Shown: positions 548 to 34,006 of the stretch, piece after piece
Numbering within the stretch: the first letter of the stretch is position 1
Layout of the letters: the number at the start of each line of letters is the position of its first letter
From: a virus
Lineage: Duplodnaviria; Caudoviricetes
Virus record (IMG/VR): IMGVR_UViG_3300017903_001352
Span: 1-34,006 of that record
Reading direction: 5' to 3' (one strand)
DNA: 34,006 bases
The notes under the pieces: model-generated
The model's database searches: none
What the model was told of the DNA's origin: nothing
What the model saw: the letters and a program-made list of their open reading frames with translations, nothing else
Position numbers and translations under genes: made by a program

Positions 548-626
548 CCCGTCTAGCTTGGTAACTATACGGGTTCTTGTTATTGTTTATCTATACCGTA
601 TAAGTTGAAAGCTATACGGTTTTTTT
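548..626 (+). ncRNA. Candidate structured 3'-UTR RNA / attenuator (hairpin, U/G-rich seed, terminator)
   Basis: Hairpin CCCGTCTAG/CTATACGGG 548-573; linker 577-592 complementary to 32361-32376 and 32659-32672; terminator 595-626. Confidence 0.5.
595..626 (+). terminator. Intrinsic terminator before the portal gene
   Basis: ACCGTATA (595-602)/TATACGGT (613-620) stem followed by a T-run. Confidence 0.8.
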
Positions 627-682: not shown

Positions 683-2077
683 ATGAATCTATTAGACCTT
701 TTGCCTTTTAGCTCGGTCAAGGCCCCAAATACCCGTATAGTAAACGAATTAAATAAACAGTTATTTAGATTCCACCAGGGTCTACCGATCTCTATAGATG
801 ATACTCAAGGGGCTTACATTGATGAAGGTTACGAATTAAATCCCGACGTATATAGCGTGGTAAATGGTATAACTAAAGCCGGCGCCTCAGTTCCCCCTAT
901 TGTTCACGTAGTAAAAAATAAAACTAAAGCGCTAAAATATCAGCAATATAAAAGAGCTAACAAGTCAAAGGTAAACCAAGCATATCTAGACAATATACTA
1001 GAACTAAAAAACGAAGCTTTTGAAGAAGTCCACGACCATCGGGACCCGCTTTATAAGCTAATAAATAATCCTAATCCGTTACAAGGATATCCGGAGTGGT
1101 ATGAGAATATGAAGGGTTTTCAGCTTATCACGGGTAACGGTTACACTCACTTTGTAGAATTAGGCGACGGTACATTTGGTGAGATGTGGGTAATGCCGTC
1201 TCAGTTTACTAAGATAGTCGCTAACCCTACTTATGAGTCATTAATAGAGTCTTACTTGATTGATATGTATGGCCACGAGGGTAAAAAATTAGACGCTCAT
1301 ACTGTAATGCACTGGAAATATTGGAACCCCGACTACGACGCCGTAGGCTCGCACTTGTATGGTATGAGCCCGCTAAAGTCAGCACGCAGATCTATACGAC
1401 TAGGTAACGACGGGGACCAAGCATTAAGCAAGGCTCTAAAGAACGGAGGGGCCTCGGGTGTAGTATTTCCAAGCGATCCGGATATAGAACAATTAACGCC
1501 GGCGCAACGAAGTCAACTAGAACAGTATTTACGCTCTATGCAAGGGCCGGATAATTATAAGTCTTGGTTAGTATCTAGTGTAAAATTAGGGTTTGAGCGT
1601 TTTGGTATGCCACCCGTAGACCTAGAGATTATAGAGGCGGGTAAGATGACGCAAAGAGATATATGCAACGTATATAACTTTCCGAGTGAGTTATTAAACG
1701 ATCCGGATAATAAAACTAATGCCAATAAAGAGCAGTCTAGAAAGCAGTTATATCTTGACAATGTTATACCCGAACTTAACAGAGACTACGCCGAGTTAAA
1801 TCGTTCTTTGGTTCCGGTATTTAACAAAGCTACGGGAACAAATTATCATTTAGATTTTGATGTACAAAGTATTGACGCATTAAACCAGGATAACGCCGAT
1901 AAAGTTGCGTGGTTAGAACGGGCTTGGTGGCTTACCGCAGACGAGAAACGCTTAGAGATGGGTTACGAGCCCGTCGGGGACAATAATAGATATATACCGA
2001 TGAATCTTATACCGGACTCACAAACCGAGCTAACCGAAGAAGATCTAAAGACATTAAACAAAGAGTATGGAGCTTAA
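683..2077 (+). CDS. Phage portal protein, HK97 family
   Basis: 464 aa; NPDVYSVVNGI, LINNPNP, LITGNGY, LYGMSPL, ICNVYNFPSELL and WLTADEKR motifs typical of HK97-family portals. Confidence 0.95.
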   Translation: MNLLDLLPFSSVKAPNTRIVNELNKQLFRFHQGLPISIDDTQGAYIDEGYELNPDVYSVVNGITKAGASVPPIVHVVKNKTKALKYQQYKRANKSKVNQAYLDNILELKNEAFEEVHDHRDPLYKLINNPNPLQGYPEWYENMKGFQLITGNGYTHFVELGDGTFGEMWVMPSQFTKIVANPTYESLIESYLIDMYGHEGKKLDAHTVMHWKYWNPDYDAVGSHLYGMSPLKSARRSIRLGNDGDQALSKALKNGGASGVVFPSDPDIEQLTPAQRSQLEQYLRSMQGPDNYKSWLVSSVKLGFERFGMPPVDLEIIEAGKMTQRDICNVYNFPSELLNDPDNKTNANKEQSRKQLYLDNVIPELNRDYAELNRSLVPVFNKATGTNYHLDFDVQSIDALNQDNADKVAWLERAWWLTADEKRLEMGYEPVGDNNRYIPMNLIPDSQTELTEEDLKTLNKEYGA

Positions 2078-2432
2078 ATATTTTAGTCAATCAGATTTCG
2101 ACAAGTGCGATCCGCCTTGTAGTATTAATGATATGAACCAAGATTTTTTAAAAAAGCTAGACATAGCAAGGCTAATAGCTGAAGTACCCTTTATAATAAA
2201 TTCTGCTTATAGAAGTGAAGAGCACGAAAAAGCGCAAGGGAGAACCGGCACGAGTTCGCATACAAAAGGTTTAGCGGTAGATATAAAAAGTATCGACAGT
2301 AAGACTAGATATAAAATTATAAGTTCCTTAATTTCAGTTGGTATTACTAGAATCGGTATTGGCAAGAATTTTATACACGCTGATATAGATACAGATAAAT
2401 CGGAAAACGTAATATGGCACTATTATGGATAA
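2067..2432 (+). CDS. Endolysin, peptidase M15 family (Zn D-Ala-D-Ala carboxypeptidase-like)
   Basis: INSAYRS...SSHTKGLAVDI...FIHAD: SxHxxGxAxD and HxD Zn ligands. Confidence 0.9.
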   Translation: MELKYFSQSDFDKCDPPCSINDMNQDFLKKLDIARLIAEVPFIINSAYRSEEHEKAQGRTGTSSHTKGLAVDIKSIDSKTRYKIISSLISVGITRIGIGKNFIHADIDTDKSENVIWHYYG

Positions 2433-2688
2433 AGAACTAAACCAAGTAAAATTCGACATTAATAAACTAGAAGCTATGATTGAAGTGCTAGCAAAAGACG
2501 TACAAGAAATTAAGGAAGCTTTAGTAGGTAACGAGTTCGGTCAAGAGGGGCTAGTAAAAAAAGTTACTCAGAATACCGAACAAATAGCCGAACTACAAAA
2601 GTTTAAACAAAAAATTATAGCTTGGGCCACCGGTGCCGGTCTTGGCTCTAGTGCTTTATTTAATGCCATATCGGAGATGATGAAATGA
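2425..2688 (+). CDS. Coiled-coil protein with C-terminal hydrophobic segment (holin/XhlA-like lysis protein)
   Basis: Heptad-rich N-terminus, IIAWATGAGLGSSALF C-terminus, directly after the endolysin. Confidence 0.5.
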   Translation: MDKELNQVKFDINKLEAMIEVLAKDVQEIKEALVGNEFGQEGLVKKVTQNTEQIAELQKFKQKIIAWATGAGLGSSALFNAISEMMK

Positions 2689-2990
2689 AAAAACCACTAA
2701 AAGATCGAAAAATTGTACGTATCATACAACAAACTACCGCGGGAGAAAACAAAGCCGGGCAAATTTTACACGGGACTCTCGATATTTTACCGTTACCTAA
2801 TCAATTCTTGGGCAAAGCCGTTAAGGCTATTTTTGCGGGAGAATTTGAACAAACTAAGCAAGAACTTAAAAAGGCTTTTACGCTCCGCAACATTGTGGCT
2901 ATAATTTTTACCATAGCCTTAGTTATGGGTTGGATAGAGCCTAGTGATGTAGAGGAGTTTAGTAAAGCTCTAAACGAAGTAGATCTATAA
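2685..2990 (+). CDS. Membrane protein, putative holin/lysis accessory
   Basis: One TM segment (IVAIIFTIALVMGWI); ATGA-coupled to the previous gene in the lysis cassette. Confidence 0.45.
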   Translation: MKKPLKDRKIVRIIQQTTAGENKAGQILHGTLDILPLPNQFLGKAVKAIFAGEFEQTKQELKKAFTLRNIVAIIFTIALVMGWIEPSDVEEFSKALNEVDL

Positions 2991-3040
2991 GATTTTTGTT
3001 ATCGTATGCCCTAGGTCTTGAAACGGTCTAGGGTTTTTTT
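2991..3040 (+). ncRNA. Candidate 3'-UTR antisense RNA ending in an intrinsic terminator
   Basis: 2994-3011 TTTTGTTATCGTATGCCC is the exact reverse complement of 29464-29481. Confidence 0.6.
3009..3040 (+). terminator. Intrinsic terminator after the lysis cassette
   Basis: CCCTAG...CTAGGG stem followed by T7. Confidence 0.85.
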
Positions 3041-3043
3041 ATT

Positions 3044-26404: not shown

Positions 26405-26434
26405 AAAACCCCTAACCAAATTAATGGCTAGGGG
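26403..26434 (-). terminator. Minus-strand intrinsic terminator
   Basis: Minus strand reads CCCCTAGCCA-TTAATT-TGGTTAGGGG-TTTTTT; the G.U pair and U-tract work only on the minus strand. Confidence 0.8.
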
Positions 26435-26518: not shown

Positions 26519-26547
26519 TTTGGTATTAATAAAATTATACCTATATT
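26519..26547 (+). promoter_or_regulatory. Early promoter of the recombination/replication operon
   Basis: A-tract UP region, TTTG-19 nt-TATATT, then AACGATAACAAAC; same layout as 32326 and 33213. Confidence 0.65.
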
Positions 26548-26585
26548 ATTGTTAGCTAACGATAACAAACCTAAAAGGATAACAA

Positions 26586-29412: not shown

Positions 29413-29454
29413 AATAATTTTTTCTACATTAATCAAAACATTAACGCCGGTCTA

Positions 29455-29538
29455 TTTGTCCGTGGGCATACGATAACAAAAGACTAACAAATACGGGGGA
29501 TGTTTGACGTTATGCCCAACGTTGAGCGTTCCCTTTTT
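29455..29538 (+). promoter_or_regulatory. Structured leader/attenuator of the replication initiator gene
   Basis: Hairpin with loop GGGCAT (29464-29469) and a 16-bp G.U-rich hairpin with loop ATGCCC (29512-29517) followed by TTTTT, ending 4 nt before ATG 29543. Confidence 0.7.
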
Positions 29539-29542
29539 ATTT

Positions 29543-30202
29543 ATGAAAGGTTGGATAAGTTTACATAGGAGCATAGAAGAACATTGGTTATATCCTAAAG
29601 GGCGCGAGTTTACAAAATATGAAGCCTGGATAGATATACTCTTACAAGTGAATCACGCAGAAAAAAAAGTAATGATAAAGGACGAGCTTTTTTTGTGTAA
29701 ACGTGGGGACTCTGTAAGGTCTTTAAAGGAGTGGGGCAAGCGTTGGGGATGGAGCCGTAATAAAGTTAGAAGGTTTTTAGAACTGTTAGAAAAAGATTCG
29801 ATGATTGTACTAAGACCCGACACAAAAACGACACACCTAACAGTATGCAATTACGACACTTACCAGGTAGCGCGGAACAGTAACGGACATCAGACGGACA
29901 CCGCACGGACATCAGACGGACATCAGACGGACACAAACAATAACGTAAATAACTATAACAATGTAAACAATGTAAATAAGACGCCGACTATAGATTTAGT
30001 AATAAATTATTTTAAGGAGAGTGGTGTTATATCTAAAAAGGATATAAAAGCAGAGTCTAGAAGATTTATGGCCTACTATGAAGAGATGAATTGGAAAAAA
30101 AATAATATCCCAATAAATTGGATAAATAGAGCCGGTAGGTGGGAGACTACATACACAGAATTTAAATTACGAGATGAACGCAAACATCAAAACCCATTTT
30201 AA
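29543..30202 (+). CDS. Replication initiator / replisome organiser (lambda O-analogous)
   Basis: MKGWISLHRSI..HW, AWIDILL..NH, RWGWSRNKVRRFL..LE, LTVCNYDTYQ; internal iterons; ATG 29543 preferred over TTG 29504. Confidence 0.85.
   Translation: MKGWISLHRSIEEHWLYPKGREFTKYEAWIDILLQVNHAEKKVMIKDELFLCKRGDSVRSLKEWGKRWGWSRNKVRRFLELLEKDSMIVLRPDTKTTHLTVCNYDTYQVARNSNGHQTDTARTSDGHQTDTNNNVNNYNNVNNVNKTPTIDLVINYFKESGVISKKDIKAESRRFMAYYEEMNWKKNNIPINWINRAGRWETTYTEFKLRDERKHQNPF
29883..29937 (+). repeat. Five tandem 11-bp iterons (ACGGACAtcag), probable replication origin
   Basis: ACGGACA at 29883, 29894, 29905, 29916, 29927, followed by an A-rich tract to about 29980. Confidence 0.85.
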
Positions 30203-31043: not shown

Positions 31044-32220
31044 CCTAGACGCTACAAAGTTATACTCTATTACGTGGAACTCTAAAAAGCCTTACGTAGT
31101 CCACCAAGGGGGAACGTCTAGCGGTAAGACTTACGCTATCCTACAAGTCCTTATAATGAAAGCTAGCACGACGCCGGGCCTTGTTATAACAGTAGTGGGC
31201 CAAGATATACCTAACTTACGTGTAGGAGCCTACCGGGACGCTCAAAATATCTTATATAACGACGCTTTTTTTACCCAGGAACTAAAAGACCATAATAAGA
31301 GTAATAGGGTGTTTACTTTTCGTAGTGGGTCTAAAATAGAATTTAACTCATATAACGACGAGATAGACGCGCGGAGTGGTAAGCGTACTCATAGCTTTTT
31401 TAACGAGGCTAACGGTATAGACTTTGGGATATTTGAGCAAATCAGTATGAGGACTACCGAGCAAACTATTATAGACTTTAACCCGTCGGCTAGGTTTTGG
31501 GCTCACGATGTTTTACAAGGTCGATCCGATGTAGATTGGTTTGTTTCTACCTTTCGGGATAACGCATTTATACAACCCTCGATAAGAGAGAAAATATTAA
31601 GCTACGAACCAACTCCGGAAAATGTAAAAAGAGGCACGTCTAACGAGTTTCGTTGGATGGTGTACGGACTTGGTGAGGTTGGTAGACTAGAAGGCTTAGT
31701 ATTCCCTAATTTTGAATTATCAAACGAATGGCCCAATAATTATAAATGGAGGGTATACGGGCTCGATTGGGGTTATACTAACGATCCGACGGCGCTAGTA
31801 GAAATACGGTACTCCGAGGGCTCTCTATATTGGAGGCAACATATATACCGTAAGAGGCTTACAAATCAAAGTATAGCCCGCCTTATAGAGGATATAGGTA
31901 TAGAAGAGGAAATAATAGCTGATAGCGCCGAGCCTAAGAGTATAGCCGAGCTACGTAATAATGGCTTATGGGTCCGGCCCGCTAAAAAGGGTAAGGACTC
32001 GGTACTATTTGGCATTCAGTTACTGCAAGACTACCCGATAAAAATATACTCACAAAGCAAAGACCTTATAGAGGAGTTTAGTAGTTACACGTGGGCAAAA
32101 GATCGGAGCGGTAGCCCAACTAATAAACCTATAGACGACTTTAACCACGGTATAGACGCCGGACGTTACGCGATAATGGATAAAATGAAGAAGAAAACTA
32201 TAGATATTTCCTTAGTGTAA
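31033..32220 (+). CDS. terL: Terminase large subunit (PBSX/SPP1 type)
   Basis: QGGTSSGKT Walker A, FFNEA Walker B, DFNP, GLDWGYTNDP, ADSAEPKSI, NHGIDAGRY. Confidence 0.96.
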   Translation: MSHNLDATKLYSITWNSKKPYVVHQGGTSSGKTYAILQVLIMKASTTPGLVITVVGQDIPNLRVGAYRDAQNILYNDAFFTQELKDHNKSNRVFTFRSGSKIEFNSYNDEIDARSGKRTHSFFNEANGIDFGIFEQISMRTTEQTIIDFNPSARFWAHDVLQGRSDVDWFVSTFRDNAFIQPSIREKILSYEPTPENVKRGTSNEFRWMVYGLGEVGRLEGLVFPNFELSNEWPNNYKWRVYGLDWGYTNDPTALVEIRYSEGSLYWRQHIYRKRLTNQSIARLIEDIGIEEEIIADSAEPKSIAELRNNGLWVRPAKKGKDSVLFGIQLLQDYPIKIYSQSKDLIEEFSSYTWAKDRSGSPTNKPIDDFNHGIDAGRYAIMDKMKKKTIDISLV

Positions 32221-32325
32221 ATAACCAGGAACGCCCGTTCCTAAAAAAAAATTAAAAAAAAATATGGGTCTACATACCCAAAAAGGGCTATTTTATAATA
32301 AATAAAAAATAATTTAAAAATTTAT

Positions 32326-32354
32326 TTGCATTGAATGTAGGAATGCCGTATCAT
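32326..32354 (+). promoter_or_regulatory. Strong early promoter
   Basis: TTGCAT-17-TATCAT with upstream A-tracts; also readable as TTTG-20-TAnn. Confidence 0.75.
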
Positions 32355-32389
32355 TAAGTAAGATAAACGATAACAAAACACCTAAAAAA

Positions 32390-32662
32390 ATGAAATTCAA
32401 ATACGTACACGCCGTCGAGTATTATAATATCAAAACCCGGGATTATTCTTTTTCTCGTTATTTCTCTTCAGAAAAAAAAGCCAAAAAAGATATAACAGAA
32501 ACAGTAAAACCTTATGGTATAGAGCCAAAATTTACATATTTACCCGTTTCGGACCTTACCTATATAACAGACCAAAATGCCTCGCAATTTTATAGAAATA
32601 TAGAGTACCGAAAAGACAGAACTTGCTATCCCGTAGCCATAATTAAAAAAATAGTAGAATAA
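32390..32662 (+). CDS. Hypothetical early protein
   Basis: 90-aa ORF after the promoter and leader motif. Confidence 0.7.
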   Translation: MKFKYVHAVEYYNIKTRDYSFSRYFSSEKKAKKDITETVKPYGIEPKFTYLPVSDLTYITDQNASQFYRNIEYRKDRTCYPVAIIKKIVE

Positions 32663-32676
32663 ACAATAACAAAACC

Positions 32677-32699
32677 GGGAGGCCTTAAGGTCTCCCTTT
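32677..32699 (+). terminator. Weak terminator / processing hairpin
   Basis: GGGAGGCC-TTAA-GGTCTCCC-TTT. Confidence 0.65.
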
Positions 32700-32714
32700 A
32701 ATGGAGAAAAACAA

Positions 32715-33155
32715 ATGACAAAGCAAGATATAAGAGACGAAATTAAAAGACTAGAACAAAAAAAACAGAATAGTACCCTTATAGATAAGAGTAGCTACGA
32801 CCGAGATATAGAACACCTAAAAAGACGTATTCCATTCGAGACAATGAGAGACGATCTAGTAGGTAAATATATTAATAGATGTCTTTGGACTGATGCTTAC
32901 CCGGTCGGTAAGATTGTAGATATTAAAGGCAAGGATACGGTTTTTATTCAGCCCGTAGTAGCCGGAGAGAATAAAACTAAAATGGATTTTATTCCTGGCG
33001 GATTCGGCGCACATTGTACTAACAACAGAGAGCAAAGTTACGACTTCGAGGAAGCCGGCGAAGTATTTAAGGAACGTCTAACATTCTCTAAGTTAGAAAA
33101 ATATTCTTGGTACATACACGACGCGCCTAGCAAGCATTACGATTATAACTTTTAA
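32715..33155 (+). CDS. Hypothetical early protein
   Basis: 146 aa; FIPGGFGAHCTN and C-terminal HYDYNF. Confidence 0.75.
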   Translation: MTKQDIRDEIKRLEQKKQNSTLIDKSSYDRDIEHLKRRIPFETMRDDLVGKYINRCLWTDAYPVGKIVDIKGKDTVFIQPVVAGENKTKMDFIPGGFGAHCTNNREQSYDFEEAGEVFKERLTFSKLEKYSWYIHDAPSKHYDYNF

Positions 33156-33163
33156 TATTAAAC

Positions 33164-33192
33164 GGGGAGCGTAAAAAACTCCCCCTTTTTTT
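33164..33192 (+). terminator. Intrinsic terminator
   Basis: GGGGAG...CTCCCC followed by C and T7. Confidence 0.8.
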
Positions 33193-33212
33193 AAAAATAA
33201 TTAAAAAAATAT

Positions 33213-33241
33213 TTGCATTGTATTATAAATGTGTGTATATT
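33213..33241 (+). promoter_or_regulatory. Strong early promoter
   Basis: TTGCAT-17-TATATT with the same upstream AAAAATAATT..AAAA.ATTTGCATTG context as 32326. Confidence 0.75.
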
Positions 33242-33279
33242 ACTTGTGAATTAAGAAACGATAACAAAACACAAGAACA

Positions 33280-33483
33280 ATGACACACATACAAACAACT
33301 CACAAGACAATAAACAAACAAGTAATTAAAAGCCTTGCACAAATGTGCCCAAGCGCCGTAAGACGTAGCAAAGTAAAAAGCGATCTATACAACAAAATAG
33401 TTTACGTATACGACGCAGAAGGCAATAGCTTAGGTTGGGCGGTAAAGGCTCCACAACAAGAAGTAAAAATAACCATTAAATAA
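33280..33483 (+). CDS. Hypothetical early protein
   Basis: 67-aa ORF after the promoter and leader motif. Confidence 0.65.
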   Translation: MTHIQTTHKTINKQVIKSLAQMCPSAVRRSKVKSDLYNKIVYVYDAEGNSLGWAVKAPQQEVKITIK

Positions 33484-33487
33484 TAAC

Positions 33488-33504
33488 GGGGCTTCGGCCC
33501 CCTT
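33488..33504 (+). terminator. UUCG hairpin (weak terminator / processing site)
   Basis: GGGGC-TTCG-GCCCC; poor U-tract. Confidence 0.6.
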
Positions 33505-33521
33505 ACTTAAACGATAACAAA

Positions 33522-33785
33522 ATGACAAAACGTAAAAGATACACAAGCGCAAATTTCTACCCGGTAGGCGATGTAGATTTATGCAATGTTGAATACGATT
33601 TAATAGCAGATCTACAAATAATGAGCAGAGAAAGCTTTTGGAAAAACGAACTACATAACGAGGACCATCCGGACTTTCTTAGAAAATATAGCACAGAGGT
33701 ACCCGAGTATATGATACTGTATATAGTCGAAAGACTAGAAGAGTATTGGAAAATACTTTATCCCGAGCGGTACGAAGAACAATAA
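33522..33785 (+). CDS. Hypothetical early protein
   Basis: 87 aa, preceded by AAACGATAACAAA. Confidence 0.7.
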   Translation: MTKRKRYTSANFYPVGDVDLCNVEYDLIADLQIMSRESFWKNELHNEDHPDFLRKYSTEVPEYMILYIVERLEEYWKILYPERYEEQ

Positions 33786-33795
33786 ACAACAACCC

Positions 33796-33816
33796 GGGGG
33801 CTTCGGCCCCCCTTTT
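33796..33816 (+). terminator. UUCG hairpin terminator
   Basis: GGGGGC-TTCG-GCCCCC-C-TTTT; near copy of 33488. Confidence 0.7.
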
Positions 33817-33830
33817 AAAACAAAAATACT

Positions 33831-34006
33831 ATGAACGGAATATTAAGAACAATAAACTGCGAAGATTACAAAAAAGAACCAATAACATATTACGAGATGG
33901 ATATTAAGTTCCAAGCTCCTTATAATAACTATACTTACTTTAGCCTAGAGGGTGAAAGTAAACAAGGCTTTATAGATCGAATTACATACGAGATAAAAAA
34001 AATGTA
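33831..34006 (+). CDS. Hypothetical early protein (58 aa); stop completed across the window ends
   Basis: MNGILRTINCEDYKKEP...YEIKKM then TA at the window end; base 1 (A) completes TAA. Confidence 0.7.
   Translation, partial: MNGILRTINCEDYKKEPITYYEMDIKFQAPYNNYTYFSLEGESKQGFIDRITYEIKKM

Follow-up and report, generated by a model that had tools for sequence, protein, structure and literature searches.

Directly 5' of the predicted terminator that ends its portal-lysis unit, this phage carries a segment complementary to the motif that precedes early start codons, and in related phages the equivalent segments vary with the early motif of their own clade. From sequence comparison, the conserved pair would be that of a late seed with early leaders, an RNA-level role against early start regions is the simplest reading of the seed, and the seed probably acts on early mRNAs by pairing with them. 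In this genome the same segment extends into an 18-nt exact complement of a hairpin in the leader of the replication initiator gene, which appears to be a non-random but lineage-specific link. The leader itself is very likely a real structured cis-element.

The window, by which we mean the whole 34-kb stretch of DNA analyzed, is a virus record that is 94% complete, with all annotated genes on the plus strand in the order portal, endolysin, head and tail genes, Erf, NinB, NinG, SSB, DnaD-like initiator, terminase and small early genes (features in Table 1). In relatives whose terminases are about 68-84% identical, the gene order is syntenic and joins the two ends of the window. Terminase relatives at 48% identity or less are distant and are found in Bacteroidota genomes; a search for cultured relatives returned no close one, the best reaching 43% for the terminase and 50% over part of its length for the initiator. 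Early promoters follow the pattern TTTG-N19-21-TAnn(T/A)T, close to the Bacteroidota promoter consensus as presented in part of a published account (PMC7366714). Because of this resemblance and the distant terminase relatives in Bacteroidota genomes, the host is likely a member of the Bacteroidota, and the phage group is likely one of marine, Bacteroidota-infecting phages. The two small ORFs 3' of the endolysin gave no informative family match (2425-2688 gave only one weak coiled-coil-type match) and may encode holin/spanin functions. Direct repeats of ACGGACATCAGACGGACA within the initiator gene (29883-29934) are likely origin iterons. Before the portal gene, at 628-665 of the window and at the same place in relatives, a conserved TTTC-N5-TTGTAAA-N5-GTTAAwTT-like block is a candidate late promoter or activator site. 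On the minus strand at 26409-26434, where no minus-strand gene is annotated, a strong terminator-like hairpin lies upstream of the middle promoter.

Table 1. Position, strand and basis of the features discussed, in window coordinates
Feature	Position	Strand	Basis or context
T1 element at the end of the early operon (seed 577-590, terminator hairpin 595-620, U-tract)	577-626	+	
M15 peptidase endolysin	2067-2432	+	family match
Endolysin and two small ORFs, 5' of the seed	2067-2990	+	
18-nt antisense segment	2994-3011	+	sequence comparison
T2, predicted intrinsic terminator ending the portal-lysis unit	3008-3042	+	
Motif copy, 10 nt	26560-26569	+	3' of the promoter box at 26542, recombination/replication operon
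Candidate -7 promoter box of the initiator leader, weak	29425-29432	+	profile scan
H1 leader hairpin	29449-29485	+	3' arm has the early motif; target 29464-29481
H2 leader hairpin, 17-bp terminator-like stem rich in G-U pairs	29495-29540	+	U-tract immediately 5' of the start codon
Replication initiator, DnaD-like / replisome-organizer family	29543-30202	+	
Early start-region motif	32367-32378	+	3' of the promoter box at 32349
Early start-region motif	33258-33269	+	3' of the promoter box at 33236
Early start-region motif	33511-33522	+	directly before the ATG of an 87-aa ORF

The segment TTTTGTTATCGTATGCCC (2994-3011) is, as a first-pass annotation had claimed, the exact reverse complement of 29464-29481, and no other exact inverted match in the window is as long, the runner-up being 14 nt. 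Its first 12 nt (2994-3005) form the seed complementary to the early start-region motif, 3006-3011 lengthen the match across the H1 loop in this phage only, and the last 4 nt (3008-3011) are at the same time the base of a terminator-like stem (3008-3034) followed by a U-tract, so that the 18-mer does run into a terminator stem, as first described. Equally sound was the claim that part of the 18-mer complements an early leader motif: ACGATAACAAAA occurs at 29470 and before early genes at 32367, 33258 and 33511, and its inverted copy at 2994 only. The description of the site as a lysis 3' UTR is fair, given the M15 endolysin upstream. The two sites had been placed 26 kb apart, which is wrong, since the gene order of relatives joins the ends of the window and puts them about 7.5 kb apart on the genome map. 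In Markov shuffles of the whole window, counting inverted arms at least 200 nt apart, a match of at least 18 nt was reached in 7, 5 and 8 of 300 sequences (orders 1, 3 and 5); in shuffles of the 1,413 intergenic nt, a restriction picked after the match was seen, 18 nt was reached in 1, 1 and 3 of 1000. The match exceeds chance, and alone it is modestly significant on the whole window. Two exact matches to the 18-mer in viral contigs both fall in the same stretch of unrelated, apparently coding sequence and were discarded as chance; an exact scan with the H2-loop 18-mer gave 0 matches. DNA contigs of runs X1, X3 and X4 have no listed differences over 29413-29613, and the run X3 contig has seven over T2, at positions not given. 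None of the sequencing runs listed with this sequence is an RNA run, which carries no information about expression.

Across the relatives, the segment just 5' of both T1, at the end of the early operon, and T2, at the portal-lysis end, complements the motif before early start codons. In the window, T1 carries a second seed of this kind, 577-590 being complementary to 32659-32672. Seventeen of 26 T1 and T2 segments (14 genomes) have a mean exact complement of at least 6.5 nt to their own early start regions and nine fall below it; of the other hairpin-plus-U sites 1 of 41 reaches it, many of these controls lying in coding DNA with unmatched composition. Over 12 representative genomes the seed score against the own genome is 7.32, versus 6.29±0.22 permuted, and 0 of 20000 permutations reach it, a count that overstates independence because the relatives share ancestry in the terminase tree. 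Ranked by seed, a genome's own early genes come first to third in 9 of 12 cases (L014, L002 and L093 rank theirs at 6, 9 and 10). The matched seed and motif words differ between phages, being CATCTTAGT/ACTAAGATG in L082, TGTATTGTTT/AAACAATACA in L044, TTATTATCCT/AGGATAATAA in L085 and ATTCTGTAG/CTACAGAAT in L007, and the differing words are scattered over several supported clades of the terminase tree, whose core is unresolved. The one representative without a T1 seed is L093, where another terminator (L093:3650-3710) complements the early start regions strongly (7.8). The early genes between terminase and portal (window 32220-34006; L001-L015, L021, L038 and L044) are small shuffled cassettes, typically made of a short GC hairpin and the common start-region motif, and their content varies even between near-identical phages.

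Could the motif be a site on double-stranded DNA, bound in either orientation by a phage protein with no RNA pairing involved? The motif copies do lie just after early promoters, and the last gene before T1, the small and conserved ORF 219-539, is a candidate regulator with a weak Bac_DnaA_C match (E 0.0045, below the curated cut-off). Against this, the motif word varies between clades though the ORF stays homologous, the complement spans the start codon in several clades, and before the terminators it is the inverted form that matches and not the sense form: the reverse complement scores 7.32, the plain complement 5.79, the reverse 4.89 and the sense orientation 4.58. We regard a protein site as very unlikely. 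Less plausible still is that the inverted motif marks where a minus-strand gene starts, or belongs to a decoy RNA carrying the motif in sense. The minus strand does read hairpin then motif, as in the early cassettes, and an early-type promoter match on the minus strand of this genome, at 645, faces T1; yet a stretch of 45 nt holds no ATG in 12 of 40 segments, among them both sites of this genome, the ORFs of the others span 2-58 aa with no peptide common across clades, and no such strong minus-strand promoter match was found at T2, nor at T1 in relatives. A search for a conserved minus-strand ORF or promoter that would account for the inverted motif found none. The promoter match facing leftward across T1 (640-669) has the fourth best score in the window and could yield an RNA sequestering the T1 seed.

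Pairing of the seed with early mRNAs is consistent with what is described for the likely hosts. Part of the literature on Bacteroidota reports that translation initiation favors an unstructured, A-rich start region (PMC7797042) and that the Bacteroides sRNA GibS represses through pairing at the start region (PMC7366714). A seed that adjoins an intrinsic terminator and is complementary to target start regions, as seen here, is a trait of trans-acting sRNAs derived from 3' UTRs. Duplexes of T2 RNA with three early start regions are predicted to gain 10-14 kcal/mol and with the portal start 7.8 kcal/mol; in a longer mRNA context the seed is predicted to be only about half unpaired. The promoter profile scan found no conserved promoter for a separate seed RNA.

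The T2 terminator is kept in relatives. Because the head-morphogenesis gene has its ATG (3044) directly adjoining the U-tract, that gene likely needs read-through; the profile scan found no promoter between them. This arrangement also fits a reversed direction of control, in which the terminated leader RNA of about 105 nt, together with early 5' ends, acts as a natural trans-antiterminator that binds the nascent late transcript and causes T2 read-through into the head-morphogenesis genes. The 18-nt match enters the T2 stem, and the predicted duplex would also strip the stem base, equally fitting this direction: without 3008-3011 the T2 fold drops from -11.3 to -2.2 kcal/mol. The relatives' seed mostly stops a few nucleotides before the stem and therefore could not break the terminator, and the H1 target is itself partly base-paired. 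We consider the reversed direction quite improbable.

What kind of element is the initiator leader that the 18-mer matches? It lies between ssb and the initiator ATG (29543) and consists of H1, a 9-nt linker and H2 with its U-tract. The H1 loop word TGGGCATA (29463-29470) can pair over 8 nt with the H2 loop word TATGCCCA (29511-29518), as foreseen in the claim that the 18-mer spans a GGGCAT loop able to pair with an ATGCCC loop, and covariation bears the H1-H2 pairing out. In alignment A3, a MAFFT alignment in which the stems are out of register and the row of this genome is off by two columns, pairing of the loop-loop helix reaches 91% across 16 sequences, compared with 13-52% for slid controls, and 7 of 7 pairs change on both sides. 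The own H2 loop is the best or equal-best match for the H1 loop in 15 of 16 leaders, the exception being a folding error. Over 14 loop types, four of which (L138, L023, L027 and L036) were chosen for their loop complementarity, cognate loops have a mean complement of 7.5 nt versus 3.7 nt for non-cognate ones. A scan for long terminator-like hairpins immediately 5' of an ATG, over all DNA examined, yielded 45, with a loop complement of 2-4 nt in 24, 5 nt in one and 6-9 nt in 20. In 12 of 16 leaders a -7-like box is found upstream of H2, at a distance of 66-77 nt, with low scores.

Besides this genome, the leader is present in L021, L022, L038, L039, L043, L044, L061, L063, L081, L138, L147 and L160, and also in more distant phages, before different initiator families (L065, L073, L074 and L096); it is retained while the initiator family is swapped (L138, L065 and L073). 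In L138:143-247 and L022:4040-4144 the same H1 stems, with two compensated loop changes, stand before initiators of different families, so that leader and initiator have been swapped independently. The same loop-to-terminator-loop design occurs before non-initiator ORFs (L023:9380-9490, L027:9670-9790 and L036:16210-16320), in two cases just 5' of an initiator, and one ORF behind such a design resembles an HNH nuclease gene. In the leaderless L001-L006, ssb and the initiator are separated by a nucleotide-metabolism block (L002:6694-8524), whose ORFs are presumably MazG-like, deaminase-like and thymidylate-synthase-like. Covariance model R1, built on A3 with only 10 pairs, had 0 matches in five Bacteroidota genomes, a blank that is uninformative because R1 also missed L023 and L036.

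In predicted folds of transcripts cut just past the H2 loop, the loop-paired, H1-open fold has the lowest energy in 8 of 16 leaders and comes within 2 kcal/mol of the minimum in seven more. In the full-length transcript this alternative is 7-19 kcal/mol worse than the terminator fold, and antitermination would therefore have to be kinetic. The modeled folds suggest that the loop-paired form is a kinetic antiterminator intermediate; possibly, the H1-H2 kiss stabilizes the terminated RNA instead.

How far is the link between the seed and the initiator leader shared? The contigs of 12 of the 15 closest terminase relatives include the initiator; the leader is found in 0 of these 12, with the seed core kept before T2. 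In five leader-bearing relatives with T2, the match to H1 is 6, 6, 4, 6 and 6 nt, compared with 4-8 nt for non-cognate pairs (the L043-type leader was paired with the T2 of L148, which has the same leader). In 17 other leader records, two of them complete genomes (G004 and G011) and the rest fragments, the longest exact complement to H1 is 8-11 nt. An H1 carrying the early motif together with an 18-nt T2 match is found in this genome only, among those compared. The 18-nt pair had been called the strongest of the proposed circuit, with conservation in relatives as its test; at 4-6 nt in five of five relatives and at most 11 nt in 17 of 17 records, it fails that test. A loop-specific 6-nt match between T2 and H1 in L021 and L038 was considered and rejected, non-cognate pairs being equally long.

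The seed might act on early mRNAs only. The 18-nt match would then be an unused by-product: H1 acquired the 12-nt early motif, either as a copy or because the motif has a sense-direction role, next to a loop whose fit to the base of the terminator stem is accidental. The restriction of the pair to this genome and a whole-genome null of about 2% speak for this, as do two comparisons with relatives. Over the 18-mer, the T2 of the leaderless L007 type shows one gap and one substitution only, and most letters of the 18-mer are therefore explained by seed and stem; the closest leader, that of L021, has the related loop GAGCATA without the early motif. The T2 side would accordingly be largely inherited, and what appears new here is the H1 side and two letters. 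Those two letters both perfect the match, the new sequence is accommodated in both arms of H1 and in the loop of H2, and the intergenic null is 1-3 per 1000, all of which count against a by-product. Drift is hard to reconcile with the 18-nt match, but the case rests on one genome. On balance, we find the by-product explanation unlikely, and use of the 18-nt pair in vivo less likely than not. The duplex of T2 RNA with the initiator leader is predicted to gain 17.5 kcal/mol, and blocking 29464-29481 in the fold prediction abolishes the loop-paired fold with full H2 still forming.

The overall explanation that we tentatively favor is that the late portal-lysis end provides an RNA seed that blocks early translation and, in this phage, also opens H1. 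The end of the late portal-lysis transcript would accumulate as an mRNA end or as a processed small RNA, and its seed would pair at A-rich early start regions and repress early translation. In the leader, pairing of the H1 and H2 loops would be a co-transcriptional antiterminating intermediate; late RNA bound to 18 nt of H1, in this phage only, would open H1 and favor termination before the replication gene. Because the loop-loop pairing is taken as antiterminating, a blocked H1 would mean that the initiator is OFF, and OFF rather than ON is the more probable effect if the pair is used. A larger scheme can be imagined, an all-RNA lytic timer in which T1 and T2 seeds silence all early genes through one co-evolving tag and a kissing-loop attenuator gates the initiator; H1 would have taken on the tag in this lineage, and one late 3' end would shut down both early translation and initiator transcription, so that the lineage would preserve a step in the rewiring of the timer. 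Such a timer seems unlikely to us. The first-pass annotation had proposed a late transcript end that switches off replication initiation and early genes; its early half is supported, in that the seeds track the early motif of each clade, and its initiator half would fit the predicted folds in this lineage only, the pair being unconserved.

In lytic phages, the shut-off of early genes and the control of the initiator are for the most part attributed to proteins. The two covarying RNA elements seen here, in marine phages that probably infect Bacteroidota, would offer RNA alternatives to protein control: a repressor in which one seed addresses many leaders, and an attenuator in which a loop pairs with a terminator loop and many orthogonal loop codes exist. 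Synthetic switches might also be built from such codes. Being restricted to one lineage, the 18-nt link is less important than first proposed; should it function, it would be an example of a new target recruited to an existing seed.

No described family was found for either element. Rfam gave 0 matches at the gathering score for the window and nine related loci, with two chance matches at E 6-8, and a literature search found no description of either, though a motif catalogued only in a supplementary table could be missed. P1/P7 C4 is an antisense RNA system akin to P4 CI. The phage P4 CI RNA (seqA/seqC) is similar in being a phage RNA that pairs with a leader and causes premature termination before replication genes, but CI is processed from the leader transcript that it controls (PMC4825925). 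The terminated H1-H2 RNA might be an effector of that kind here. StxS, like lambda 6S, is a terminated RNA from a phage late region with a regulatory role; StxS is a promoter-proximal termination product, whereas the seed here ends an operon of roughly 2.4 kb (PMC7547250). The portion of a 2025 review of phage sRNAs that was available names no such element (PMC12197685). OppZ and CarZ are described as autoregulatory, RNase E-processed sRNAs from 3' UTRs (PMC7398697). As with these, an operon 3' end with a terminator would pair with translation start regions, and T1 would act on its own early operon; unlike them, the targets here would be copies of one motif common to many early genes of the phage, and T2 belongs to another unit, a late one.

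The pT181 attenuator, as outlined in part of a published account, is a terminator in the 5' UTR of the rep initiator gene whose 5' hairpin holds the antiterminator, and an antisense RNA fully complementary to the 5' part of the attenuator is the OFF signal (PMC4878617). The leader shares with it a predicted intrinsic terminator in a rep-gene 5' UTR; it differs in that the complementarity amounts to 18 nt, is contributed by the 3' end of a remote late unit and occurs in a single genome, and that the cis pairing is from loop to terminator loop. For a pT181-type countertranscript encoded in cis over the whole leader, a minus-strand promoter at a shared position was sought in the 16 leaders by profile scan only, trained on 18 early promoters, and none was found. 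I-complex plasmids use translational coupling to a leader peptide. In their rep control (ColIb-P9 repZ / IncB), a hairpin loop has two alternative fates, activation through cis pairing or capture by an antisense RNA, each specificity group has its own loop sequences, and cis pairing upstream of rep is nucleated by a loop, as it would be here; there, control is translational and exerted by the cis-encoded RNAI, while the partner loop in this phage belongs to a terminator hairpin (PMC10724649). In five T2-bearing relatives and 17 leader records, no antisense RNA covaried with the target loop as in the I-complex systems. Since neither a countertranscript nor a conserved antisense RNA was found, we do not place the leader in the pT181 or I-complex families; by analogy, the leader would work like pT181 and I-complex rep control, and the seed like sRNAs derived from 3' UTRs.
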